Notes under the pieces: model-generated
Seen by the model: the letters and a program-made list of their open reading frames with translations, nothing else
Told to the model about the DNA's origin: nothing
Database searches by the model: none
Source of the DNA: Blastocatellia bacterium
Lineage (GTDB): Bacteria > Acidobacteriota > Blastocatellia > RBC074
NCBI GenBank assembly: GCA_044221525.1
Contig: JBGAPB010000001.1
Coordinates: 1,892-65,891 of the forward strand
Direction: 5' to 3'
Length of the DNA stretch: 64,000 bases
Position numbers and translations under genes: made by a program
Shown here: in pieces, positions 5,916 through 22,539 of the stretch
How the letters are laid out: every line of letters begins with the position of its first letter
Numbering within the stretch: the stretch's first letter is position 1

Positions 5916-6763
5916 TGCGATTCCATAAATTCCAGGCTTTGGGCAATGACTTCCTCATCGTGCGCGAAAGCGAATTGCGTGCGGTGACCGATGATTTTGA
6001 ATCCTTCGCCCGGTTGATATGCGACAGGCATTTTGGCGCGGGAGCCGATGGTTTGGAGTTGTTGCTGGATTCGCCCCAAGCCGGAGCCGATTTTGAAGTT
6101 CGGTTGTTCAACGCTGATGGTGGAGAAACTCCGATTTCAGGCAATGGAACTCGATGCGTTGGAGCATATCTTTATCTGGTTGAAAACTGGGACAAGCCGC
6201 AGGTCAGGATTGCGACCGGAGCGGGCATCAAAACTCTGAAGCCTGTTCGGCGAAGCAAAAAAAGCTTGGTGTTTGAAACTGAGATGGGGACGCCGCGTTT
6301 TCACAGCAGCGAAATTCCGGTCGCTTTGCCGACTTCGCTTGAACGAGTGATTCGTCAGCCGCTGGAAGTCGCCGGACAGACTGTCGAGATAACTGCGACT
6401 TCGATGGGCAATCCGCATTGCAGTATCTTTGTCGAAGATTTTGAGCAATTGGACTGGCGTCGGCTTGGAGCGGCGATTGAAACTCACGCCGCGTTTCCTG
6501 ATCGAACCAACGTTGAGTTTATTCGCGTCCTGAACCGCAACGAAATTGAAGTGCGGTTTTGGGAACGGGGTTGCGGCGAGACTCTGGCTTCTGGAACCGG
6601 TTCATGTGGAGCTGCTTTGGCTGCGATGCTGAACGAATTGACCGAGCGCAAGGTCAAAGTTGTGACCGCCGCCGGAGAACTGACTGTTGAATGGCAGAAT
6701 GACAACATGGTTGTTCAAACCGGTGAAGCCTGCTCTGTCTTTTGTGGCGAGTGGCTAACTTGA
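5915..6763 (+). CDS. dapF: Diaminopimelate epimerase
   Basis: GNDFLIV, SMGNPHC, GTGSCGAA motifs; ATG overlaps upstream TAA. Confidence 0.85.
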   Translation: MRFHKFQALGNDFLIVRESELRAVTDDFESFARLICDRHFGAGADGLELLLDSPQAGADFEVRLFNADGGETPISGNGTRCVGAYLYLVENWDKPQVRIATGAGIKTLKPVRRSKKSLVFETEMGTPRFHSSEIPVALPTSLERVIRQPLEVAGQTVEITATSMGNPHCSIFVEDFEQLDWRRLGAAIETHAAFPDRTNVEFIRVLNRNEIEVRFWERGCGETLASGTGSCGAALAAMLNELTERKVKVVTAAGELTVEWQNDNMVVQTGEACSVFCGEWLT

Positions 6764-6772
6764 GGTGACCGA

Positions 6773-7054
6773 ATGAGTGAAAAGCAAGATGACAGATTTG
6801 TCGCACTGGCACATTTTTCCAACTCAATTGAGGCGGGGATGGTTGGCGAGTTGCTGGAAAACAACGGCATCACTTCGATTCCGCAGGGCGTGAACTTTGC
6901 CGGTCTGGAGCCGTTGCTGATGCCGGGCGGGTATTCTGAAATTACTTTGCTTGTTCCTGAAAACGAGCTTCAGCGGGCACAGCAGCTTTACGATGCTTTC
7001 TTTGAACAGCAAGCCGACGCCGCTTTGCCTGAAGATGTTGAAGTACAAGATTGA
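6773..7054 (+). CDS. DUF2007-like putative signal-transducing small protein
   Basis: 93 aa, pattern typical of DUF2007 (PII-like fold); inference. Confidence 0.45.
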   Translation: MSEKQDDRFVALAHFSNSIEAGMVGELLENNGITSIPQGVNFAGLEPLLMPGGYSEITLLVPENELQRAQQLYDAFFEQQADAALPEDVEVQD

Positions 7055-7072
7055 CCGAGGCGATGTCAGAAA

Positions 7073-7399
7073 ATGGAAAGCGCATTGGTTGTGATGACAA
7101 CCGCTGAAACGCCAGCCGATGGAGAGCGCTTGGCGAAATTGTTGGTTGAAGCCGAGTTGGCGGCTTGTGTGCAAATATTGCCGCAAATTACTTCGGTTTA
7201 TCGCTGGCAAGGCAAGGTCGAACAGGCAGGCGAAACTTTATTGCTCATAAAAACTACCCGCGCTGCTTATGCCGAGCTTGAAGAGGCAGTCAAACAGAAT
7301 CACTCCTATCAAACTCCTGAGATCATTGCCTTGCCCATCGAAGTTGGTTCATCTGAATACCTGAACTGGCTAAAAGTGTCGGTTAAATCACAGCTTTAA
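7073..7399 (+). CDS. cutA: Divalent-cation tolerance protein CutA
   Basis: 108 aa, CutA1 pattern …SVYRWQGKVE…. Confidence 0.85.
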   Translation: MESALVVMTTAETPADGERLAKLLVEAELAACVQILPQITSVYRWQGKVEQAGETLLLIKTTRAAYAELEEAVKQNHSYQTPEIIALPIEVGSSEYLNWLKVSVKSQL

Positions 7400-7592
7400 C
7401 CGTTTGTTGCAGCAAATCTCTGGCAGCGGCTTAATATATCTTGCTCTCAGCCGGTAAGTTTGTGTAAATTGCGGCTACCGATCCCCGAGACAATTCGATT
7501 CATAGATCATTGCATTGAATGTCCAGCTTCGATCAATCTGGGCCAATGCTCGCCCTTATCCATACCAGTTGTTGGCAATATCGCAAGCTATG

Positions 7593-8297
7593 CGTGTCTT
7601 AGTGATCGAAGACGAACTGAAAATGGCTGATTTGATCAAACGTGGTCTCGAGGAAGAGGGGCTGGAAGTTGAGACGGCTTATGACGGTGAAACCGGAATC
7701 GCCGCTGCCAAATCCGGCAACCACGATATGATAATTCTGGATTTGGGTTTGCCAGGTCTGGACGGCTTGGAAATTGCGCGTGAATTGCGCGAGGGCGGGT
7801 TCGATACGCCTATTCTGGTGCTGACAGCACAAGACAGCACTGAAATGAAAGTCAAAGGGCTGGATACCGGCGCAGATGATTACCTAACCAAACCTTTTGC
7901 TTTTGCCGAATTGCTGGCGCGCATTCGCGCGTTATTGCGCCGGACAAATACCGAAGATACAACCAAGATTCAGGCCGGAGATTTGGTGTTGAACCTGATC
8001 AATCGCCGGGCTTCGCGCGCGGGTAATGAGGTGCAGTTGACCAACAAGGAATTTTCGTTGCTCGAATACTTCATGCGCCATCCGGACGAAATCCTTTCCC
8101 GCGAAACGTTGTCCGAAAAAGTCTGGGAAGAGACCTTCGACACGTTGACCAATGTGATTGATGTTTATATCAATTATTTGCGAAACAAGATTGATCGCAA
8201 CTATGAACCCAAACTGATTCACACAGTTCGCGGCATTGGCTACATGTTCAAAAGTCCTGCGGGCCAATCTCAAATGGTTGCAGAAGCTAAAGCCTAA
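7593..8297 (+). CDS. OmpR-family response regulator (CusR/CopR-like)
   Basis: MRVLVIEDE…DLGLPGLDG receiver domain plus winged-helix C-terminus; ORF track extends to 7515 but the canonical start is at 7593. Confidence 0.85.
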   Translation, partial: RVLVIEDELKMADLIKRGLEEEGLEVETAYDGETGIAAAKSGNHDMIILDLGLPGLDGLEIARELREGGFDTPILVLTAQDSTEMKVKGLDTGADDYLTKPFAFAELLARIRALLRRTNTEDTTKIQAGDLVLNLINRRASRAGNEVQLTNKEFSLLEYFMRHPDEILSRETLSEKVWEETFDTLTNVIDVYINYLRNKIDRNYEPKLIHTVRGIGYMFKSPAGQSQMVAEAKA

Positions 8298-10651: not shown

Positions 10652-10972
10652 ATGGAAGCTTTGGGAATGATCGAATGTCATGGCCTTGTGGCGATGATCG
10701 AAGCCGCGGATGCAATGGTCAAAGCCGCCAACGTCAAATTGGTAGGCTGGGAAAAAGTTGATGCCGGGCTGGTTACCGCCATCGTGCGCGGCGAAGTTGG
10801 CGCGGTTAAAGCCGCAGTCGAAGCAGGAGCCGCCGCCGGTCGCAGAGTCGGCGAAGTGGTTACCACCCACATCATCCCGCGCCCTCACGGCGAAGTTGAT
10901 GAAGGCTTGCCCGTGTTGCATACCGGTGAAACCACGCGAAAGCCGATCAGTGGATCAGTCAACCCATCCTGA
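10652..10972 (+). CDS. Bacterial microcompartment shell protein, BMC-H (PduA/EutM/CcmK family)
   Basis: [79 protein letters not shown] is a near-canonical BMC domain. Confidence 0.8.
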
Positions 10973-11099: not shown

Positions 11100-11375
11100 C
11101 TAAGCAGTGCGGAAAATGCCTATTTTCAGAAGGCTTTCCACGTCATTTGCCTCAACAATATTCAACGGCCGGTCGCCTGAAAAAAAGTATCGTTTTCTTG
11201 ATGCTAACCCACGCACCACAATCGGTTTTTCCTGAAGATAACGCAGGCGCGTCTTATCAGTAGAGCCAGATTGCTCTGGCTTTGAATCGCTTGTAGTAGG
11301 CTGAGATGGGCTAACCGTTGTCGTTTGTGCTTCCGCGCTCTTGAGCGCTTGTCGTTTCTGGCCGCAACAACTCAT
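11100..11375 (-). CDS. Hypothetical small protein
   Basis: ORF with GGAGAGG SD 5 nt before the second ATG (MSCCGQ…); overlaps the 3' end of the DUF1360 gene by about 65 nt in another frame. Confidence 0.25.
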   Translation of the reverse strand: MSCCGQKRQALKSAEAQTTTVSPSQPTTSDSKPEQSGSTDKTRLRYLQEKPIVVRGLASRKRYFFSGDRPLNIVEANDVESLLKIGIFRTA

Positions 11376-11727
11376 ATTGAACCTCTCCATTTTGAAAATC
11401 GGAAATTGGTTGAATCACCGCAGATTCCTGGCTGATGCGTTCTAAAAGGCAAGCTGCGCCTGAAATGGCGAGCAAGACAAATAGCAATTCCACTGGCTGT
11501 CTCGTGACATAAAAAGCCATGGGCGCTGCCACCCATAAGCTCAGGCATTTGAAGCAATCCATCAGCTTGCCCCAAAACCCTTCACCTAACCACAGTCGGA
11601 AACGAAAAACGACATCCCCAGGACCATCCTCCTTGGAGAATAGATGAGTAAGTCGCCATGTTGCGAGGACTGCCAAAATAAAGTTAATTGCTGTCACTTT
11701 TTCGGGCATCAGCAGGTCTTGTGGCAA
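11311..11727 (-). CDS. DUF1360-like small membrane protein
   Basis: WRLTHLF…DGPGDV… and DCFKCLSLWVA motifs with two TM helices. Confidence 0.55.
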   Translation of the reverse strand: MPQDLLMPEKVTAINFILAVLATWRLTHLFSKEDGPGDVVFRFRLWLGEGFWGKLMDCFKCLSLWVAAPMAFYVTRQPVELLFVLLAISGAACLLERISQESAVIQPISDFQNGEVQYELLRPETTSAQERGSTNDNG

Positions 11728-11858
11728 TAAACAAAACTATACAAAACAGGCTGATCCTAACGGTTTGGAATGATACCGTTAGGACAGCCAAGAGCGCTTG
11801 CCTTACTGTTGGTGCTGGTGAAAAATCCTTTCTAAGACCTACCAGCACCAATGGTTGT

Positions 11859-12323
11859 TTACGGCATAACGTAAATGCATGGGCCTTTGCAGTAAGCGCC
11901 AATGCCAATAGGTTTGCCATTGCAATCAAGGAATGCTGCCGTGATGCAAAGGCAATACAAGTCACCACAATCTTGAGGTGAGTCCGGGCATTTGAAGCAG
12001 TCTGAGGGGAAGTTAAATGTGACCGACGGTTTGTCGTTATTACACAGATTGAAATCAATCGTCTGACACTTTTTACCTTCCGGCGCGTTACCGCAAGATT
12101 CCCAAGCGAGACATACACAGATCTTACCGCACAACAATCGTTTGAGATCGCTGCTGCCGGAAAAATCAAATGTGATGGTCGCCGAGGACGCCTCGTTACA
12201 ACGGATGATGGTGGATGGCTCACGACCGGTTCCTGCAAAGAAATCGGCCTTGAGTGAAGCTTTGAGATCAACACACATTTGTGGCGGAAACTCAAGATCG
12301 CATTCGAACGGTACCATGGACAT
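11859..12323 (-). CDS. Cysteine-rich protein (17 Cys in 154 aa), no signal peptide, unknown function
   Basis: Strong AAGGAGG SD 7 nt upstream of ATG; the overlapping 203-aa ORF in another frame is Arg-rich and looks spurious. Confidence 0.5.
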   Translation of the reverse strand: MSMVPFECDLEFPPQMCVDLKASLKADFFAGTGREPSTIIRCNEASSATITFDFSGSSDLKRLLCGKICVCLAWESCGNAPEGKKCQTIDFNLCNNDKPSVTFNFPSDCFKCPDSPQDCGDLYCLCITAAFLDCNGKPIGIGAYCKGPCIYVMP

Positions 12324-12629
12324 TTTCAGACCTCCTTAAGGATGATTAAAGGTTTTCCTGGCAAAATGAGTTTGTTACTTTCAATATGCCAAGGCTGTCG
12401 CAAGTCCGACATATGACTTGACGAAAAGAACTATAAGGAAGCCCGATTAGGCCGTAGTTTATTGTTACTTAATTCAAAAATTTTTTTGATTAAGCAAAAC
12501 ATCGTAGCGATCAATTTTTCTGAAGTGATTTGTAGTGCGTAGGTTTGAGCCTGATTACAAAGAGCTAAAATCCCATTGATATAGCTGAATAAACAGCAAT
12601 CTCCATTCAGTGATTTTACAATTACCAGA

Positions 12630-13631
12630 TCAAAGGACTTGAAGTAGTGGCACCTCAATATGATTCCAGATTGGTTGAACGTCCCGGATAGTAGTAAGAA
12701 TTCTAAGTTGATAGGTTCCAGGTGGGAGTGTAATTGGAGCTAGGTTGGCCATATAAAAAAATTCGTTTTCTTCCAGGGAATCTGGCTGTGAGGCACCAAG
12801 CCGAATGGGTGTATAGGTCAATAAATTGATTGCATGGAAGACCGCACCAAATTCCAAGCTTTTCTTTGTTGCCTTGGCCGCTCCCAAGCCAGTAACTTGA
12901 AAGGAGGCAGTAAGCGAAAACGGTTCCTCTGCTTTTATATACCCCGAAACGGCATGGTGTTGAGTAAAAAGTTCTTGTGGTTGATTAGTCGAAGGTGGCT
13001 GTAGCACCTGAATTCCAGTGATCTCAATGTTTACCGGTGATGATACTGCCGAAACCTCAGTAGAGAGAGCTTCCGTAACAGGTGAATCTTCTTCAGGAGT
13101 AGTTGTTACTTTTTTGCCCAATCGCTTCAACATCCATTTGCAGGCTTCATCGGTTTCAATCCCCGGCCAGCTTGCCTGTTCTTCGGTTTCCATGTGCTGA
13201 ATGCCGGTACGATGCTCTACCTTGGTGCGTTTTTCCTCCTTGCCGCCGACATTTTTGCGCTCGAAACAAACCACGAAATTGGCAAAATCACTCCATTCTT
13301 TTGTCGTCTTGGGTGCGGCGGAAACTTTTTCCGGTTTTGCTTTTGTTGGCGGAGTACTTTCTGGTGCTGATGCTGAGGATTCTTCCGCCAATTCTCTGGC
13401 GCGAGCAAGAATCGGTTCAAGCTCTTCGATTGATATAACTTCACCTGTTTGTTTGCCGCGCGCTCGGATTTTTTGAGCTGACAGCTTTGCAAGATCGGCA
13501 AAGGTATATACCTTCAATGATTCTCGTAACCATTGTTCCAGGGCTTTGCTGACGCCAGGAATGATGGTGAGATTGTCGGTTTTCTGAAGGTCTTCTTGTG
13601 GCGGAATATCGCTTTTTGGGTTGGTTGCCAT
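12630..13631 (-). CDS. Hypothetical protein: HhH-like N-terminus, acidic Ser/Pro linker, beta-rich C-terminal domain
   Basis: GGAGAGA SD; N-terminal IIPGVSKALEQWL…FADLAKLSAQKI is helix-hairpin-helix-like. Confidence 0.5.
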   Translation of the reverse strand: MATNPKSDIPPQEDLQKTDNLTIIPGVSKALEQWLRESLKVYTFADLAKLSAQKIRARGKQTGEVISIEELEPILARARELAEESSASAPESTPPTKAKPEKVSAAPKTTKEWSDFANFVVCFERKNVGGKEEKRTKVEHRTGIQHMETEEQASWPGIETDEACKWMLKRLGKKVTTTPEEDSPVTEALSTEVSAVSSPVNIEITGIQVLQPPSTNQPQELFTQHHAVSGYIKAEEPFSLTASFQVTGLGAAKATKKSLEFGAVFHAINLLTYTPIRLGASQPDSLEENEFFYMANLAPITLPPGTYQLRILTTIRDVQPIWNHIEVPLLQVL

Positions 13632-13781
13632 GGTTCTCTCTCCGGGTTTTGTATAAAAGGATGCGAAGTCTTTACTTTCTGGTGATTACCAGAAGCTTCA
13701 CATGGCAGTAGCATGCTGCTTAAGGCTTAATTAGCGGTGAGGATGCACTATAGCAATTTGACGAGTGAAATTAATTGACCA

Positions 13782-15131
13782 CTAAGCAGATTGCCTGCGT
13801 CTGATTTCGTCGAATAATTGCATGGTTTCTTTGCTTGGCATTATGTTGAGGTCGCGAATCAGGTTTTCGCGGCAATTATGGAATTGACGCAGCGCCAAGT
13901 GCGCATATCCCATCAAGTTGTAACATTGCATTAGCCGACGATGTAGCTCTTCGTTACAGGAATCCACAGCCAGCGCTTTGGAGCACATGGTTACGCACGT
14001 TTCGTAATTTTTCTGATCGAAGTAATAGCAGGACAGGCGATTCATCACGGCCAAATATGTGTCCTGATAGTTTTGTCTGATTGAAACCAGCCATTCCTCA
14101 TAACGATCCTCGACTAAAAACTCGCCCTGATAAATTGTTTCAGCCGCACGATATTCACGAATTGCCGCAGCCTGTTCTCCACGCGCCTCGCATTCTTTTG
14201 CCTTTTGAACGTGTGTTAAAAATGCTTCGGAATCAACCCAAATGTTGGCTTCCGGGTTGAGCAGATAACAGTCATCCTGAAATAGCACATAAGAAAAAGA
14301 GGTATTCACCTTGTTAAGTGATTTGCGCAGGCCATAGATAGCCACATTCAAATTGTTCCTGGCGGCGTCCGGGTCTCCTTCTGGCCAGAAGGCTTCCATT
14401 AAGACTTCTTTGGGAATGGGGCGTTGGCGATGTGTCACCAGATATTTGAAGATTGACTTACCCTTGCAATTTGGCCAGCCAATCACCGGTTGCTCGTCAA
14501 GAAGCACGCGGAATGGGCTTAGAAAGTAAACGGCGAGTGATGGGCGATTTATGGATTGGCTGTCGTCCGTCTCTTCGATGAATGTATCAGGTGTTTCAGT
14601 GTTGGCATTGGCAACCTGAACCACTGGTTGTTCGACGGCTCTTTCCACAACTGGTTTAGGGATTGGTGAAAAAGTTTTTGAATTTGGTGCAGGCCCCAGC
14701 AGGTCCTTAATACACTGCACAAGCCGTTCATACTTGGCAAGGTTGGCATTGAAAGGCTGGCTCAGGTCATTGTTGGAGCCATGAAGTAGATACTTATTGT
14801 TTTTGCCTCCTTCAGTTGGAGGGCTGATCATCTCGATTAGGGCATTGAGTTCCTGTAACAACTTAAGTTGTCGAAGGCTTGCTTTGGAATAAGCATCTCT
14901 GTGCCACTCGACTTCATCCCAGGCGCAACAACAAGCTCTGGATATCCGATAGGCTGCATCAATCATGCAAGCCAGGGATTCATTTCCTGAAAGTTCGCAA
15001 CTTGAACGAACTTCGTTAAGAAGTTCCGCGATGGCTTCATAGCGATAAGTTTTCGGCGCTTCTTCGTCCTTATGTCGCTGCAACGAAGTTTCAATGGTTG
15101 AGTCGGGGGGAATGTTATCTATGGCTATCAT
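13782..15131 (-). CDS. SARP-family (OmpR-like winged helix plus BTAD) transcriptional regulator with about 200-aa unknown N-terminal domain
   Basis: FRVLLDEQPV…LMEAFWPEGDPDAARNNLNVAIYGLRKSL winged helix, followed by a BTAD-like helical repeat region. Confidence 0.65.
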   Translation of the reverse strand: MIAIDNIPPDSTIETSLQRHKDEEAPKTYRYEAIAELLNEVRSSCELSGNESLACMIDAAYRISRACCCAWDEVEWHRDAYSKASLRQLKLLQELNALIEMISPPTEGGKNNKYLLHGSNNDLSQPFNANLAKYERLVQCIKDLLGPAPNSKTFSPIPKPVVERAVEQPVVQVANANTETPDTFIEETDDSQSINRPSLAVYFLSPFRVLLDEQPVIGWPNCKGKSIFKYLVTHRQRPIPKEVLMEAFWPEGDPDAARNNLNVAIYGLRKSLNKVNTSFSYVLFQDDCYLLNPEANIWVDSEAFLTHVQKAKECEARGEQAAAIREYRAAETIYQGEFLVEDRYEEWLVSIRQNYQDTYLAVMNRLSCYYFDQKNYETCVTMCSKALAVDSCNEELHRRLMQCYNLMGYAHLALRQFHNCRENLIRDLNIMPSKETMQLFDEIRRRQSA

Positions 15132-15622
15132 GGCTAAAACTCTTTTCTCAACTTATCTCGCAAAAAGAGGCAACACAGAATTAGTCGAACTTTCATGGGC
15201 TTGTGGTCTTTGCTCGAGCTTGATCTAAAAAAAGGATCAAGCGAGGGTGAACACTAAAAGATCGAATACCTTCTTTAAGGATAACTGGCTAACTCTGTGA
15301 TTGTCGTGCAATTGGTCAGAACTACAGGCGCGCTTGACCAAATGCTGATGGCCGAATGACGAGGACTGATCAATCGGAGAAAACTGTGATATTGGGCAAC
15401 TTAAACTTTGCGTTTGATCGCCAGTTTATGGCGTAGACTGAAAAAAACTGGCCGATCAACAACGGCTGAATTACTTCTTTATTATCGTGTCACTGGGAAA
15501 ATTCTTTAGCTGAGTCCCCCGGCGGCGGCTAATACTACAACGCTCTGTCACTTCAGCCAAAACGAAAAGACAATCTAGAAGTAAAAACTTTCGAGCTGGG
15601 CTTTCAAAAACCGAGCGGCAAT

Positions 15623-15671
15623 CAAAGATAAAGACGGTAACAGAGACTCTCTATTACCGTCTTTATCTTTG
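15623..15671 (-). terminator. Perfect 18-bp-stem hairpin 18 nt downstream of the patatin gene stop
   Basis: caaagataaagacggtaa cagagactctcta ttaccgtctttatctttg. Confidence 0.45.
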
Positions 15672-15688
15672 CGCCGATTTGGTTCGGC

Positions 15689-18600
15689 TTACCCTGTATC
15701 ACCTTCTATGCCGCTCATGGCTTCGTTGTTGATTGGCGGCTTATCTTCGATTCCGAAGTTCTTCTTCATGCGATCAAACAAATCTGTCAGGTCTTTCACA
15801 TCCTTCTTGCCTATGATTTTTTCAACGGCGGTTTCGCCAAGAGAGCGATAGCTCTCGAATTGCGATTCGCTGTACATCTGATCGCCAGTGGTTTCGTGGG
15901 GGAAGGTCGGGTTGTCTTTGGCATAGTTCAGTATATCTGGCGCTTCGGAACCATAGACTGTCGGTTTGATGTAAAGCAGCCAGCCGTTTACAGCTTCTTC
16001 GCCATCAACCGCCTTGTAATTGATTCGGGCCACCGAGCAGTATTGGCCATCGTCACTGCGCCCATCTTTGGTGAACAGCGACTCTGCTTTTATCCGTGGG
16101 CGGATTTTCAGTCTGTCATCGAACTCAATTGGCACGCCTTGATCAATTTGAATCTTCCTGATGGCGCCGCCCAAATCCTCAAAGCTGAAATCGTGGTCGG
16201 CGCTGGCGTCGCTCAGAACGATCAGGTGGCAACGGCGGCGAACCATTTCGTAAAGCCCAAGGTTTTCAAAATGCCCGCCATCCGAAAGATATATGTATTT
16301 GTGTTCGGCATCAGTCAAACCAAATGTTTCCGCCAGCAGATGAATTGGCGCAAAGCGAGGGCTTGAACGCTTGAATTGTTCTTTGCGTGGATTGCCCAGC
16401 CACCAGCCCAAGCGCACGTTGAACAGCGCCAGCAGAAAGGTGACCACTGGCGAAGAGTGATACCCCATGTTGGGACTGGCCGCCGCGCCGGAAATAGCCA
16501 GACAGGTTCCCAGTGAGATTGGTGGTGGGCCAGTTATGTCTGTAGCTCTGCCGCAACCATATTTTTCAGTCGGGCGATAACCAACCAGGCGGCTTCCAGC
16601 GTGTAGCGGAGAGAATGTGAAGGATTCGGCCTTGCGATCTTGCCAGGCCAGATTGCTGTCGGCCACCAAATTAAGCGCGGTGTTAATGACATGCAGAGGA
16701 TGCTGCAACGATGGGCTGATTTTCGATTCGCGCAGCCAGAACATTCTCAAGTTGTCGTCTTCGTCAAAGTTTGTAAATGGGTCTGGCCTCCGTTTGCCGT
16801 TTGTTCTTGAAGCCCCCAGGTAGGCACGAATCAACCGGTCGCGGTAAGCGCCGTGAAGCGAAAACTTGTTGATGTTGATAAACCAACCCGCTATTCCTCC
16901 AAAGGCCATCAGGACAATCGCGGCCAGCACCACAATGTGAGTCGGTGTGTGGTAAAGAACATTCAAGTGCCAGTTTCCGGCAACTGGAAACTGATCGTAC
17001 TTAGGCAAGTAATTCAGGTCGAAAGTGCCCAGTTTTAACAGCCAGTAATTGCCGGTCAGAACTTTGATTGCCAGATTTATCAATTCGCTCCCAGCCGCCA
17101 GTTTTTCCAATATGAACCGAAACATCCAACTGGTCACCAGCGAAAGTGAAACCAGAATGAATGCTGAAAACAAGGGTGCGGCAAAAGGCAACAATGCCTG
17201 GATCAAGTTTTCAGTCTGACTTGGTTTGTGGCCAGAGGCCTGTTTGTTTGCTGCGGTCTTGCCGCTCCACCCGCCCAGCAAAGTCAGCAGACCGGTCAAG
17301 GTGCCAATAGAAAAGAACGATCCTTTCACCATCGGCCCGTATTTGAGCAATAACCAAGGGCCGAAAATCACCAACGATCCGACCACGCTCCAAACCACAA
17401 TTGCTATCAATATCCAGGCGCCAGACCTTGCCAGCCATTCACGATCTGCGTCAGTCATAAAATCGCTGGCCAACCCTGTGTACATTGTTGCGGCAAGCAA
17501 AAGCACCAGCATGAAAAGTGGCGTCGCAAAGCAAACATAAGTCGCGGCATTTAGTGTAAGTGAGTCAAGATAGCCACCGGCCACTTTGGCAGACGGCTCC
17601 CCATATAGCGCCATACCTTCAAAAAAATCATGTTGACCAATGGCAACCGGCGGGAAGATAAAGATTTTTTTGGCGACAAGCCATAAGAAAGCTCCGCCAA
17701 CTGCACCGGTGATTGTGATGTAAAAAACATCCAGCCAACGAAACAGCTTTGATTTAATCGAACGGGCCAAGACCCAAAGCCTGGTTGAGAAGGATTTTTT
17801 TTCACTCAATTCGCTTTCATTGATGCACAGCAGTGAGAGCAGAAAACCTCCGAGATGCAACAGCACGCCGAAGCAGATAAAAATCCAAAACCAGTTCACT
17901 TTCTGGCACCAGCCAGTTTGACATCCGGGCAGATGCGCTCTCAGTTTGGTTTCGCTGACGTGAATCCACGCCCAGTGAATCGCGCTGGTGACGGAAACCG
18001 CCAAAAAAGGAAGTAGACACAAAATGACAAACCAGCTATCACCCAGAGGCACTGGCCAGATTCCAAGAAATTTTTGCCGGCTGCCAGATGTCGCTTTTGA
18101 TCCGGAACCAGGTCGGCAAACGATGACATAAGCAATCGGCAGGGTTCCGCAAGAAACACCCAGCCAAAATAAAATTTTGAATAGTGAATCGCTTGCACCG
18201 GCCCAATGGGCGACCGACATTCCCAAACGCGGAATTACCAGCATCCCCATCAGTAATGGCAATAACACCGACCAGTTCAACAGCAAATTGCGTAAAAATG
18301 TAGCCACCAGCGACCAGGTATCAGCCGACAATAAGCCTAACTTAGGGCTCATATAATTGCTGTATTGACGCAGGTGCGTGATTGGCTCAGGTTCGGGATT
18401 GAGCGCCGACTTGGGCTTGTTGGCGCCGGATGGTTTGCCGGATGTCGCCAGCGCGTTTTCGACGTTATCAACGCCTTGGTGGTAAATCCAGGCCGAAAGC
18501 CAACTGCCGATATATCCTCCGCCTGAAACAGTTGAAAGAAAGTTGAACTCTCTCAGTTTGACGCCCCGTCCGGTCAGCCCCTGTAAAACTCCCAGAGCAA

Positions 18601-18973
18601 AAGTTGCGCTGCGAATACCTCCGCCAGAAAAGCAGAGTGCGGTGCGTTTGATTTTGTGATGATGCAGAGCCTGATAAAAACTATTGGCCAGTTCGCCGGT
18701 TTTCTTCTCAAGATATCTGTGCTGCTCAACCGGCGAAGAAAATTCCTTCAGAGCTGTTTCTTCAAACTCCCTGCATATCTGCTCGATCTCGCCGGTGGTA
18801 AAAGTGATCTGACGACCAGATAGGTCACCGGTTAGCTTTTCTGGCCATGAAGGATTCAATCGTCGTTGATGCTCGAACTCTGCAACTAAAATTTCGACGA
18901 GTGTCAGCGGACGCCCGTCGGTTTCTTGCTGGCGATTGCTGGTTTGCTGATAGCTTTTTGTTTGGGGTTCCAT
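15689..18973 (-). CDS. Patatin-like phospholipase fused to a large polytopic membrane domain (1094 aa)
   Basis: CFSGGGIRSATFALGVL (GGGxR oxyanion hole) near the N-terminus, DGGHFENLGL catalytic Asp motif near the C-terminus; more than 10 predicted TM helices between. Confidence 0.8.
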   Translation of the reverse strand: MEPQTKSYQQTSNRQQETDGRPLTLVEILVAEFEHQRRLNPSWPEKLTGDLSGRQITFTTGEIEQICREFEETALKEFSSPVEQHRYLEKKTGELANSFYQALHHHKIKRTALCFSGGGIRSATFALGVLQGLTGRGVKLREFNFLSTVSGGGYIGSWLSAWIYHQGVDNVENALATSGKPSGANKPKSALNPEPEPITHLRQYSNYMSPKLGLLSADTWSLVATFLRNLLLNWSVLLPLLMGMLVIPRLGMSVAHWAGASDSLFKILFWLGVSCGTLPIAYVIVCRPGSGSKATSGSRQKFLGIWPVPLGDSWFVILCLLPFLAVSVTSAIHWAWIHVSETKLRAHLPGCQTGWCQKVNWFWIFICFGVLLHLGGFLLSLLCINESELSEKKSFSTRLWVLARSIKSKLFRWLDVFYITITGAVGGAFLWLVAKKIFIFPPVAIGQHDFFEGMALYGEPSAKVAGGYLDSLTLNAATYVCFATPLFMLVLLLAATMYTGLASDFMTDADREWLARSGAWILIAIVVWSVVGSLVIFGPWLLLKYGPMVKGSFFSIGTLTGLLTLLGGWSGKTAANKQASGHKPSQTENLIQALLPFAAPLFSAFILVSLSLVTSWMFRFILEKLAAGSELINLAIKVLTGNYWLLKLGTFDLNYLPKYDQFPVAGNWHLNVLYHTPTHIVVLAAIVLMAFGGIAGWFININKFSLHGAYRDRLIRAYLGASRTNGKRRPDPFTNFDEDDNLRMFWLRESKISPSLQHPLHVINTALNLVADSNLAWQDRKAESFTFSPLHAGSRLVGYRPTEKYGCGRATDITGPPPISLGTCLAISGAAASPNMGYHSSPVVTFLLALFNVRLGWWLGNPRKEQFKRSSPRFAPIHLLAETFGLTDAEHKYIYLSDGGHFENLGLYEMVRRRCHLIVLSDASADHDFSFEDLGGAIRKIQIDQGVPIEFDDRLKIRPRIKAESLFTKDGRSDDGQYCSVARINYKAVDGEEAVNGWLLYIKPTVYGSEAPDILNYAKDNPTFPHETTGDQMYSESQFESYRSLGETAVEKIIGKKDVKDLTDLFDRMKKNFGIEDKPPINNEAMSGIEGDTG

Positions 18974-19785
18974 AATCAGTTGAGCGTTGAGTCTTCTTGT
19001 TTCCTTTTCAAAAGGCTAATGTCTCAATATTAGATGATGATCTAGTCAAATTTAGCGAAGCGCTGAGAGGGTAATGAAAACTAAAAAGTGACTAGAGCTT
19101 GTATTTAAGCAAGAAAGCAGGCTGTTTCTGCAATTTGTCAGCCAGATTCCGCCTCTCTTTCGGCATCAGGCAGTAGTTGAGATGTCTTTATCATTTGCTA
19201 GGTAATCATCGTTGCACTCCCAGGAGAAAGTATTGTGTATGGCTTCGGTATAATCTGGAAAATAGTTCGTTTGACTGATAAGGCAATGGCAAATGTAGTC
19301 CAATTGTTATGCAAGCGTCAATTTTTTTGGCGGAGAGTTTGAATTTCTTTTGGTCGCTGAGATTGCCGTTCTCCGGCTTGCGCCTCTGGAATTGATAATG
19401 TAGCATCTCGGCCATCATCGAGCATCAGTAATGAGCTGTGATCGCTGAGGCGCTAAAACACTTCTAGCGCCGTTGCAGATTCCCGCAAAAGTTCCTACGT
19501 TGATCTTCATAGTGGGGAGAAATCTCATCTCTGAACGAAAGGTTCAGAGGCAAGGACACCTAATTCTCAATCTAGTCTTTTGATTGAGCGTCAATCGTCG
19601 GCAATGCTGCGCCTACTTCGGCTGTGCTTAATTGCCTGGAAATAAACCTGAGCGGATAAACTGCTTCAACAATCAATGCTTGACTTGTCGCTGAGGCTCC
19701 AACTTTTGAAAGCAGCCAGTCCGCACTGCTTTCAAAGCCAATTTACCGCATTTGCCCCTGCGCATCTGCACTAAGGAGAAAGAAA

Positions 19786-20253
19786 GTGAACCGAAAACTG
19801 ATTCGCACAACTTTGGCTGAAGTCAAAGAAAGAGAGTATCACCAACAGCAGGTGCGCCGAGCTGAGCCACCGCCCCAACCTCAACATCGTCAGGAGCGTC
19901 CCGAGCGTCCAGCCCATCAGGGGCATCAAGGGCATCAGGCTCAACCTAAGAAGAAAATTCCGCCTGAGCAGACCAATGCTGAAAGCTTTTACTACAAAAA
20001 GCAGATGGACGCTCACACGCCAATGGTTTTGGTTTTACAGGACAATGAAGCTCTGCACGGGATCATTGAATGGTATGACAAAAACAGCATCAAGCTGCAT
20101 CGTGACGAAGGGCCGAACCTGTTAGTTCTGAAACATAACATCAAGTACATGTACAAAGACGAGGATGTGAAATCTTCAAAAGGAAAAGGCGAGTCGAGTG
20201 CCCGGCACGACGATGACGATGACGACGATTATGAAGATTCGGACGACGAATAG
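19786..20253 (+). CDS. Hfq-like Sm-fold RNA-binding protein with basic His/Pro-rich N-terminal extension and poly-Asp C-terminal tail
   Basis: GTG start after AAGGAGAAAG; Sm1-like [24 protein letters not shown] and Sm2-like LVLKHNIKY (compare Hfq [25 protein letters not shown]…YKHAI). Confidence 0.5.
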
Positions 20254-21453: not shown

Positions 21454-22191
21454 TTACTTCTTCTTGGCGGCTTTCTTTGCCGGAGCAGCTTTTTTAGCTG
21501 GAGCGGCTTTCTTTGCCGGAGCAGCTTTTTTAGCTGGAGCGGCTTTCTTTGCCGGAGCAGCTTTTTTAGCTGGAGCGGCTTTCTTTGCTGGCATATTTTT
21601 TGGGCCTCCTTTCTTTGAGAGTGATTTTGCAACTTTATTAACTGCCTTTTTGATTGCTTTCTTGGCAGCCTTCTTAGCCGGCTTAACCGGTTGGGAAATT
21701 TTTTGGACAGTCTTCTGAACTGAAGACTTGGCGGCTTTCCTTGCTGATTTTGCAGCCCTCCTAGCCGTCTTTCTGACAGTCTGTTTGATCGCTTTTGGCT
21801 TCGCCAATTTCGGGATTGGCTCCGTTACCGTTGGGCTTGTTTTAGCATCTGCAGTGGTTACGACTTGAGATTTTTCGCTTATCGCAACCGGCGATTCGCT
21901 CACTCGTTCTATGGTGTTAGCGCTTCTGATCGTCAGTTCGTCATTGGCGCCGTCATTGTCATCATCAAACGAATTGTTGTTTAAGTCGCTCTTCAAATAA
22001 TCTTCATCTTCGTAATCGTTCTCATCGCGGTAATCGTCATAATCCCACGGGTCGCGTTCTTCATCCTCTGACTGCAGGAAGTAACTTTTGGGCGCTCTGC
22101 CTTGCGGCGCGAAGTACCTGATTGGTGGCAGACCATCGTCTTTATTCAAGCCAACACTCATACCATCTTTCAAACCACCTTTCTTTGTCAT
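21454..22191 (-). CDS. Histone H1-like Lys/Ala-rich DNA-binding protein with (AAPAKK)n C-terminal repeats and an acidic middle region
   Basis: AAGGAGGA SD before MTKKGG…; C-terminal PAKKAAPAKKAA ×6; acidic DYDDYRDENDYEDEDY stretch. Confidence 0.6.
   Translation of the reverse strand: MTKKGGLKDGMSVGLNKDDGLPPIRYFAPQGRAPKSYFLQSEDEERDPWDYDDYRDENDYEDEDYLKSDLNNNSFDDDNDGANDELTIRSANTIERVSESPVAISEKSQVVTTADAKTSPTVTEPIPKLAKPKAIKQTVRKTARRAAKSARKAAKSSVQKTVQKISQPVKPAKKAAKKAIKKAVNKVAKSLSKKGGPKNMPAKKAAPAKKAAPAKKAAPAKKAAPAKKAAPAKKAAPAKKAAKKK
21464..21600. repeat. 36-bp tandem repeat (about 3.7 copies) inside the H1-like gene
   Basis: gcggctttctttgccggagcagcttttttagctggagc repeated head-to-tail. Confidence 0.85.
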
Positions 22192-22539
22192 AATCCTCCT
22201 TGATCGGTTCATAAAGCCGTCAGAGCGGTGCGCCGCTCACTCCTTCTCTCAACATCGTTGTCGAAATCGTATAGAGAAGCAGACTGTATTACAGCGCGCA
22301 ATTTTGGTTTGTTGATGTAGATTGAATCATAAGGTATTGGCGAAACGCAGGCGGATTATAGCACGTAGCTTTTTTGTCGCTAGAGCAATTGTCTATAGGC
22401 CAACATGAACCAACATTGACTGAATTCAAGAGAGTGTTGAAACCACTTTGCTTATTTTGCATTCGGCGGTTGATGTGTAAAATGGCGTGTCTTTAGTGAG
22501 CGACATATTCAACACTGATATTCAAGGTTAAGAATTTCA

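Follow-up and report, generated by a model that had tools for sequence, protein, structure and literature searches.

Positions 11100 to 19785 of the 64,000-nt stretch of Blastocatellia DNA analyzed here (contig JBGAPB010000001.1; hereafter, the window) hold six minus-strand genes, which a preliminary description had grouped into a single horizontally acquired island that might encode a defense, toxin, or lipid-remodeling system. On balance, we favor a different division of this stretch, into two unrelated units (a separate patatin gene and a five-gene cassette) accompanied by regulatory RNA and DNA. The cassette consists of the genes for a SARP-family regulator, a 333-aa protein (p333), a 154-aa protein with 17 cysteines (Cys154), a DUF1360 membrane protein, and a small protein (orf96), and it is a real, undescribed, and conserved gene neighborhood. 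The patatin gene is a stand-alone gene that is inherited vertically with hfq and pdxA, and it is a neighbor of the cassette rather than one of its components.

Conservation of the five-gene cassette

The five genes form an unbroken group, with their order unchanged, in the window and in the related loci L002, L003, L004, L009, L010, L011, L012, L014, and L016 (four genes on L014, whose contig ends inside the DUF1360 gene, with orf96 beyond its reach). Nine of the loci are independent, and they represent at least three genomic settings: between hfq/pdxA and BMC/TauE genes, as in the window; between PMT_2 and metallophosphoesterase genes (L009 and L011); and among RHS, TonB, M23, and HEPN-MNT genes and an insertion sequence (IS) fragment (L014). 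Every locus with p333 or a close Cys154 homolog holds the SARP, p333, Cys154, and DUF1360 genes, and orf96 as well except on L014. In the more distant L095 and L096, where the genes lie between leuCD and bioBFDA, all five were recovered with hidden Markov models (HMMs) built from the cassette loci; the Cys-rich protein is only ∼34% identical there, and the order is changed so that a Cys-DUF1360-orf96 group faces a p333-BTAD group. L097 and L098 retain the BTAD gene, the Cys gene, and an HhH-type relative of p333. Because the association outlasts both rearrangement and change of context, the cassette genes are likely to be functionally linked.

Around the cassette, the shared order of genes is GFO oxidoreductase, an orphan gene, pdxA, the hfq-like gene, patatin, SARP, p333, the Cys-rich gene, DUF1360/orf96, BMC (on the opposite strand), TauE, histidine kinase, and response regulator. 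This order is common to the window and to L002, L003 (where patatin is absent), L004 to L006, L010, and L016, and the block is therefore not a strain-specific insertion. Nor is it ancient. In L019, whose flanks are 85 to 88% identical, neither patatin nor the cassette is present upstream of hfq, and genomes that are related more distantly have the hfq-like gene immediately after ftsZ, where the dcw cluster ends. Presence and absence in relatives, which the preliminary description had proposed as a check on an acquired island, thus gave a divided answer: the block is missing from L019 and the more distant relatives, but the same arrangement recurs in at least six related genomes.

The cassette is restricted to a few Blastocatellia-like lineages. 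Homologs of p333 formed only 13 clusters among 5.8 billion proteins, all from Blastocatellia-like sources, and a pattern-based scan found p333 in 4 of 185,579 species-representative genomes. Two of the metagenome-assembled contigs carry other labels, L007 (the same locus as L002; record CAZMXG010000160.1) “uncultured Heliomicrobium sp.” and L012 (JALAHR010001491.1) “Nitrososphaera sp.”; both are probably misbinned, since their gene content matches that of the Blastocatellia loci. On L014, the immediate neighbors of the cassette are a toxin-antitoxin-like pair of the HEPN/nucleotidyltransferase type and a fragment of an ISL3 transposase (L014 positions 6181 to 7656), which was the only mobile or defense-like context seen.

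Gene content and composition of the flagged stretch

All six open reading frames (ORFs) were present and co-oriented on the minus strand (Table 1). The unusually long noncoding gaps noted earlier, of about 300, 560, and 810 bp, measured 306, 557, and 812 nt. The domains named in the preliminary description (patatin, SARP/BTAD, and DUF1360) were all recognized, and, as it had also stated, none of the components is housekeeping-like. Two proteins had been described as lacking a recognizable family; the 96-, 154-, and 333-aa proteins matched no Pfam family even at an E value of 10 and nothing in NCBIfam, PHROGs, PADLOC, or the PDB sequences. The 154-aa protein does contain 17 cysteines, and its ATG is preceded by the near-perfect Shine-Dalgarno sequence that had been reported (AAGGAGG).

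The same description held the whole stretch to be richer in AT than its flanks. The GC content of the window is 0.506 and that of the 8,686 flagged nucleotides 0.472, and non-overlapping segments of equal size never fell below 0.492. The dip is confined to positions 11100 to 15688 (0.456, against 0.508 ± 0.012 for other segments of that size), the lowest value in the window. The gaps have a GC content of 0.36 to 0.44, and the p333 and SARP genes one of 0.46 to 0.47, with a third-position GC (GC3) of 0.40 to 0.48 where ∼0.55 is typical. The patatin gene, in contrast, is of normal composition (GC, 0.503; GC3, 0.554), so the claim holds for the cassette region only.

TABLE 1 Features of the flagged stretch, in window coordinates
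Feature	Position	Strand	Remarks
orf96 ORF (96 aa)	11100-11390	-	ORF list
orf96 (∼91 aa)	11100-11375	-	Conserved from Met6 (11375); starts MSCCGQKR
DUF1360 ORF	11311-11727	-	ORF list
DUF1360 membrane protein	11311-11709	-	PF07098; likely start ATG 11709, from start-codon context
Two strong RNA hairpins, Cys154-DUF1360 gap	11749-11851	-	Minimum free energy -52.9 kcal/mol, z -5.4; 0 of 200 shuffles as low
Cys154 (154 aa, 17 Cys)	11859-12323	-	ORF list; predicted beta-sandwich; strong Shine-Dalgarno sequence (AAGGAGG)
Operator-like palindrome CTTAATC-N13-15-RATTAAG	12467-12495		In the 306-nt gap upstream of Cys154; followed by conserved AACAAWAAAC
p333 (333 aa)	12630-13631	-	ORF list; three-part protein
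Motifs in the 150-nt SARP-p333 gap	13725-13777	-	CAATTAATT; ∼37 nt downstream YGATTAAGCC, then CATRCT
SARP-family regulator	13782-15131	-	ORF list; 200-aa N-terminal domain, winged helix 226-276, BTAD 299-444
Promoter-like TTGGCT-N17-TAGTAT and ∼170-nt conserved block with three hairpins	15352-15560	-	In the 557-nt gap, after the patatin terminator hairpin
Likely patatin terminator, 24-bp near-perfect hairpin	15623-15671	-	18 nt after the patatin stop; arms 96% complementary, 1-nt loop
Membrane-integrated patatin/cPLA2-like lipase gene	15689-18973	-	ORF list; PF01734 match, motifs, hydrophobic segments
Promoter-like TTGCGC-N17-TAGCAT (19378-19406) and structured 5' leader (∼370 nt) of hfq-like gene	19378-19785	+	hfq start at 19786

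Different histories of the genes

Synonymous divergence (dS) separated the genes into two groups. Against L010, the closest genome (flanking proteins 95 to 97% identical to those of the window), dS was 0.18 to 0.46 in the flanks, 0.36 in SARP, and 0.31 in patatin, compared to 0.86 in p333, 0.82 in DUF1360, and 0.91 in orf96; Cys154 was saturated (51% amino acid identity). Against the distant L002, the flanks gave 1.2 to 2.1 (0.64 for the BMC gene), SARP 2.06, and patatin 1.79, compared to 1.10 for p333, 0.61 for Cys154, 0.39 for DUF1360, and 0.33 for orf96. The dS of p333, Cys154, DUF1360, and orf96 (the payload genes) is thus about threefold that of the flanks in the closest genome and about fourfold below it in the distant one. 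Because the dS values of SARP and patatin equal those of the flanks, these two genes share the history of the backbone, with which they were inherited vertically. The payload genes, by the same comparisons, are old allelic lineages that were replaced by recombination between genomes. One recombination breakpoint lies near the p333-Cys154 gap, and others lie inside p333.

These dS results mean that “horizontally acquired” is right for only part of the region, and then as allelic exchange at a fixed locus. What stands of the island proposed earlier is the deviant composition, the absence from sister lineages, and the allelic exchange in four genes; what does not is a single island, a recent acquisition, and the hallmarks of mobility. 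We found no tRNA, no integrase or transposase domain, and no flanking direct (att-like) repeat in the region, and such marks of an island were dropped from consideration.

Could the cassette genes simply be unrelated orphan or decaying ORFs that came to lie side by side in a poorly constrained, AT-rich stretch? The absence of annotated function for four of the five proteins, the low GC content, and the long gaps would all be expected under this explanation, but the ratio of nonsynonymous to synonymous changes (dN/dS) was 0.06 to 0.30 throughout, which indicates purifying selection on every gene (no value was above 1, and there was no decay and no gene-wide positive selection). Moreover, the five-gene association survives change of context and rearrangement, the AlphaFold2 models are confident, and the intergenic motifs are conserved. 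A chance neighborhood is already contradicted by the conserved gene order and purifying selection, and we regard it as hardly credible.

Elsewhere in the window, between pdxA and the GFO oxidoreductase gene, a 252-aa orphan ORF (21454 to 22212, minus strand) has a low GC3 (0.455) and resembles its positional counterpart in L002 over the first ∼50 residues only (49% identity). This would be a further case of a fixed position whose gene evolves fast or has been replaced.

The patatin gene

The patatin protein matches the N-terminal part of PF01734 (profile positions 1 to 51 of 191) with an E value of 4e-6 and a score of 27.5 bits, just under the cutoff of 27.7, and most of its homologs carry a precomputed PF01734 match. 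In common with patatin/cPLA2-like phospholipases (patatin, ExoU, CapV, and cPLA2), it has a GGGxR oxyanion motif (SGGGIRS, residues ∼116 to 122), a Ser nucleophile elbow (VSGGG), and the DGG Asp motif (SDGG, residues ∼897 to 900). All three are kept in L002, which carries a full-length ortholog. The protein differs from these enzymes in that the elbow reads T-V-S-G-G (residues ∼146 to 150) instead of G-x-S-x-G and in that an insert of ∼460 residues with about nine hydrophobic (transmembrane) segments (residues 230 to 690) splits the two catalytic halves. Its presumed activity is the deacylation of membrane phospholipids. The family is large, with >7,800 homologs, mostly from metagenome-assembled genomes of Acidobacteriota; in contrast to characterized patatins, no characterization of it was found in the literature, where a search for patatins with transmembrane segments in Acidobacteria returned nothing useful. 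A PDB sequence search yielded no relative of the protein.

The separation of this gene from the cassette rests on its distribution, its normal GC, and its terminator hairpin. In L003, the hfq-like gene is followed after 885 nt by SARP, with the cassette kept and patatin absent; because patatin is missing from a locus that keeps the other genes, we treat it as a neighbor and not as a component. Conversely, L001 has a patatin that is 83% identical but followed by a different gene, and its DNA homology to the window ends at position 15308. No patatin was found at the cassette loci in other contexts (L009, L011, L014, L095, L096, L097, and L098). The gene also appears to have its own signals, namely, a promoter-like TTGACG-18-TACATT at 19292 to 19321 on its 5' side, conserved with L001, and the likely terminator hairpin, the position of which is taken in L002 and L004 by a hairpin of another sequence (GGCGGTAAGGAAGGA...TCCTTCCTTACCGCC).

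These data bear on the reading of all six genes as one acquired island for lipase-based defense, toxicity, or lipid remodeling under SARP control. In the window, L002, L004, L010, and L016, all six lie side by side in one orientation, the stretch as a whole is low in GC, and patatin effectors are known from defense systems such as CBASS CapV. Yet the cassette occurs without patatin in L003 and in the other contexts, and patatin occurs without SARP in L001; patatin is normal in GC and like the flanks in dS, with a terminator and a promoter-like site of its own; its family has >7,800 members against ∼13 clusters for p333; and mobility genes, tRNAs, and att-like repeats are lacking. Unlike patatins of defense systems, this one has no cyclase or other defense partner. 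None of the six proteins matched PADLOC, no relatives were found in the viral contigs scanned, the sole PHROG signal was a weak match of DUF1360 to phrog_781 (E value, 1e-4), and the cassette is without any link to lipids. The proposal that the stretch encodes a defense, toxin, or lipid-remodeling system was thus not borne out. The single-island lipase reading is largely refuted already and in our judgment very improbable, and the cassette is probably not a lipase-coupled defense system.

Proteins of the cassette

The SARP regulator has the winged helix (Trans_reg_C, residues 226 to 276; E value, 4.6e-7) followed by the BTAD domain (residues 299 to 444; E value, 6.3e-23) that is common to SARP activators such as AfsR, DnrI, ActII-ORF4, and EmbR, and residues 202 to 446 align to residues 14 to 257 of EmbR (2fez; E value, 3e-5). 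As with cluster-situated SARPs, the regulator is directly upstream of a few conserved, co-oriented genes. It differs from known SARPs in several respects. A 200-aa domain precedes the winged helix, and residues 1 to 200 matched no family in PADLOC, NCBIfam, PHROGs, or Pfam (E value of 10). No biosynthetic enzyme domains were found in the cassette or its conserved neighbors, in contrast to SARPs that control an adjacent secondary-metabolite cluster. The host belongs to the Acidobacteriota and not to the Actinobacteria. Finally, the regulator has an (HhH)2-like protein as its constant partner: SARP adjoins p333 in every cassette locus.

That partner, p333, has an N-terminal (HhH)2-like helical domain (residues ∼20 to 87), a strongly conserved charged middle (residues 113 to 172), and a hypervariable C-terminal Ig-like beta-sandwich (residues 200 to 333). 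The three domains assort independently, which makes the protein a domain mosaic, and the Ig-like domain is its most variable structured part. A relationship between this domain and Cys154 as paralogs was considered and dropped, as the profile-profile probability was 0.2% and the two sandwiches are not detectably homologous.

Cys154 is the most variable gene of the cassette, with 39 to 51% identity among genomes whose flanks are 84 to 97% identical. Cysteine accounts for 9 of the 31 residues that are invariant in ten loci, and seven Cys positions are 70 to 93% conserved in the wider family. An HMM search for this family gave 78 clusters at 50% identity, mostly of 150 to 170 aa and none with a Pfam model; one member is fused to a cupredoxin, and a few have His/Gly-rich or Pro/Tyr-rich N-terminal tails (Pro/Tyr/Gly-rich repeats). 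The predicted beta-sandwich (predicted TM score [pTM], 0.71) has only generic structural neighbors.

Such features could belong to an abundant structural protein (a coat, matrix, or inclusion, possibly cross-linked through its cysteines), with DUF1360 and orf96 aiding assembly or export and SARP switching on production in a developmental or stress program. The strong Shine-Dalgarno sequence, a gene layout in which hairpins come after the major product, repeat tails of the kind that structural proteins have, cysteines that are conserved while the rest drifts, and an Ig-like fold as in adhesins and S-layer proteins would all suit this role. It is nonetheless improbable, given that no signal peptide, hydrophobic N terminus, or known export signal was found on the soluble proteins Cys154, p333, and orf96, that there is no assembly or secretion machinery nearby, and that the number of conserved cysteines is odd (seven), unlike a pure disulfide scaffold.

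The C-terminal half of the DUF1360 protein matches PF07098 above the cutoff (E value, 4.9e-6; 26.9 bits against 21; profile positions 52 to 100 of 102), including the CxxC-W signature of the family. Its gene probably starts at ATG 11709 and not at 11727. In the 10 loci aligned, the protein conserves the motif ATWR.THL..KEDGP and an invariant CxxC (MDCFKCLS) beside a hydrophobic segment. It differs from other DUF1360 proteins in that its gene shares an overlap with that of a conserved CC protein and keeps company with genes for a SARP and a Cys-rich protein. DUF1360 is a family without known function, on which we found nothing useful in the literature.

The CC protein is orf96, with an invariant N terminus, M-[SAG]-C-C-G-[QR]-K-R, and a conserved C-terminal motif, RYLxxxPIVVRG..G+.YfFS...P...VD..D. 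It had no Pfam or PDB match. The gene is conserved in 9 of the 10 cassette loci (32 to 83% amino acid identity), the contig of the tenth ending before it, and a homolog is present in the distant L095 (E value, 7e-21). With a dN/dS of 0.17 to 0.30 and an overlap that is kept, orf96 is, as judged from these comparisons, evidently a real gene. The first 65 nt of orf96 (11311 to 11375) are also the last of the DUF1360 gene, read in another frame, and the overlap is 65 to 90 nt in every locus, which is unusually long for codirectional bacterial genes.

Conserved noncoding DNA within and around the cassette

The long gaps are regulatory, with proposed promoters, conserved leaders or RNAs, and an operator-like palindrome; the promoters rest on conservation patterns. 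The palindrome upstream of Cys154 is conserved in all 10 loci aligned, and among the 99 fetched loci its exact pattern occurs at this position only (10 locus identifiers, representing 6 distinct loci). A window-wide enrichment of ATTAAGY was considered and dropped, as there were 11 occurrences against 10.75 expected; only the spaced palindrome is specific. The motifs in the SARP-p333 gap show little or no variation among 10 loci that represent three genomic contexts.

Two RNA hairpins separate Cys154 from DUF1360. The second (GGCUGUCCUAACGG...CCGUUAGGAUCAGCC, followed by the U-rich run UGUUUUGU) is recognizable in 6 of the 10 loci aligned. The pair looks like an attenuator, a terminator, or a stabilizer.

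The block in the 557-nt gap is conserved in seven loci, including L001, where no SARP follows, and L003, where no patatin precedes. Because it is present in both, it would be either the leader of SARP (a 5' untranslated region [5' UTR] of ∼390 nt) or an independent small RNA. No Rfam family matched it. In L001, the block is followed by a different ORF (MKQTNVLLLDLQ...; L001 positions 6246 to 6443), cut by the contig end, in place of SARP, and the SARP position may therefore be replaceable.

The hfq-like gene and its leader

Half of the 812-nt gap is occupied by a leader of the plus-strand hfq-like gene, which we propose as a candidate new structured cis-regulatory RNA on the basis of conservation and covariation. 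Ahead of the leader, the pattern TTG...N17...TAGCAT is invariant and the spacer variable, as in a promoter. The leader is >90% identical in five loci, compared to 85% for the adjacent coding DNA. Of 80 metagenome loci searched with nhmmer, 29 have it immediately ahead of the hfq-like gene and without exception on the strand of that gene; its place in more distant relatives is between ftsZ and hfq. Four helices covary, with 93.5% of cells paired against 40 to 58% when the pairing was slid; double changes numbered 65, whereas shuffled alignments gave 25.8 ± 4.6 and none of 500 came as high. This test, with 21 pairs in a MAFFT alignment, lends moderate support. The leader contains no ORF and matched nothing in Rfam.

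Long cis-regulatory leaders are known generally, and Escherichia coli hfq has an autoregulatory 5' UTR. The leader described here is like the E. coli 5' UTR in being long, conserved, and structured and in immediately preceding a gene of the Hfq family that is read from the same strand. It differs in having no sequence or Rfam relationship to it, in its length of ∼370 nt, in being specific to one Blastocatellia clade, and in the atypical Hfq_1 protein downstream, with its N- and C-terminal extensions.

The hfq-like gene (19786 to 20253, plus strand) is itself atypical. It has a GTG start and a match to Hfq_1 at the cutoff (PF21979, 27.2 bits), and its product has an N-terminal extension of ∼75 aa with His/Gln/Pro repeats and a poly-Asp C-terminal tail. 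Most of the retrieved Acidobacteriota loci have pdxA and this gene as neighbors. A literature search on Hfq of Blastocatellia returned nothing useful.

On the other side of the cassette, a lone BMC-domain gene (10652 to 10972, plus strand; PF00936; E value, 3e-29) lies before TauE and keeps 93 to 97% identity in relatives. The search of its surroundings showed no further gene of a microcompartment.

Possible function of the cassette

How might the five genes work together? We infer that the SARP activator and p333 would jointly control the cassette through the ATTAAG-type sites that precede the p333 and Cys154 genes. Cys154, with its strong Shine-Dalgarno sequence and with hairpins right after its stop codon, would be the abundant product, and read-through past the hairpins would yield less of the CxxC membrane protein DUF1360 and of the translationally coupled orf96. 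As for the function served, we tentatively put forward thiol-based chemistry (metal, sulfur, or redox handling between the cytoplasm and the membrane), a possibility that we favor because the Cys154 family conserves its cysteines and includes a cupredoxin fusion and His-rich tails, and because the CxxC of DUF1360 and the CC of orf96 do not vary.

Several observations weigh against our account of the cassette. Allelic replacement of the payload genes is unexpected for a plain metal or redox housekeeping module and fits a role in biotic interactions better. A CCC motif in the N-terminal domain of SARP was considered as an Fe-S or redox sensor and dropped, as it is not conserved in distant homologs. 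Characterized SARPs bind direct heptamer repeats, whereas the conserved sites here are inverted ATTAAG/CTTAAT half-sites, and the aligned cassette loci showed no direct repeats that are conserved ahead of p333 or Cys154. Generic sigma-70 and terminator scans performed at chance level, and the transcription units are read from sequence only. Both beta-sandwich folds are generic, and no function can be derived from them. The census of species-representative genomes was limited by its patterns. Finally, patatin adjoins the cassette in most loci of one subclade, and a loose functional link between them is possible.

The first of these points leads to a system of biotic interaction (antiphage, kin or self recognition, or toxin-immunity) in which p333 and Cys154 would recognize a variable partner through their hypervariable Ig-like domains and DUF1360 would be the effector. 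We consider this doubtful and less likely than thiol chemistry. Allelic replacement, with its old allele lineages, affects exactly the four payload genes; p333 shuffles its domains and varies most in the Ig-like one; Cys154 has diverged within closely similar flanks; the cassette is low in GC and patchy and rare in distribution; and one context, L014, adjoins a HEPN-MNT pair and an IS fragment. But PADLOC and the viral contigs gave no match, at least five of six contexts are housekeeping neighborhoods and not defense islands, and no nuclease, NTPase, protease, or known toxin domain is present. Purifying selection acts on every gene, dN/dS never exceeding 1, and a dedicated SARP activator would be unusual for a defense system.

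With about the same reserve, we suggest that the cassette could be a polymorphic system that has not been recognized before, without homology to described systems, in which an activator pair licenses an abundant Cys-rich, Ig-like protein and its membrane partner, and which would be either a system whose specificity is diversified by allelic exchange (self/non-self, antiphage, or competitor sensing) or a thiol-based metal machine.

Significance

Few groups of bacteria are as abundant in soil as the Acidobacteriota, whose lineage-specific genes are for the most part uncharacterized. The organisms considered here are uncultured, and the immediate impact of our findings is modest. A widespread but unstudied membrane-integrated patatin lipase has now been separated from the genes that adjoin it, and a rare five-gene neighborhood has been defined, so that its members can be studied together. 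DNA that had seemed empty is explained as regulatory RNA, including a candidate new leader for an Hfq-family gene that recurs in 29 of 80 related metagenome loci. The payload genes of the cassette have been swapped between lineages, which is usually a sign that a gene has to deal with a partner that keeps changing.

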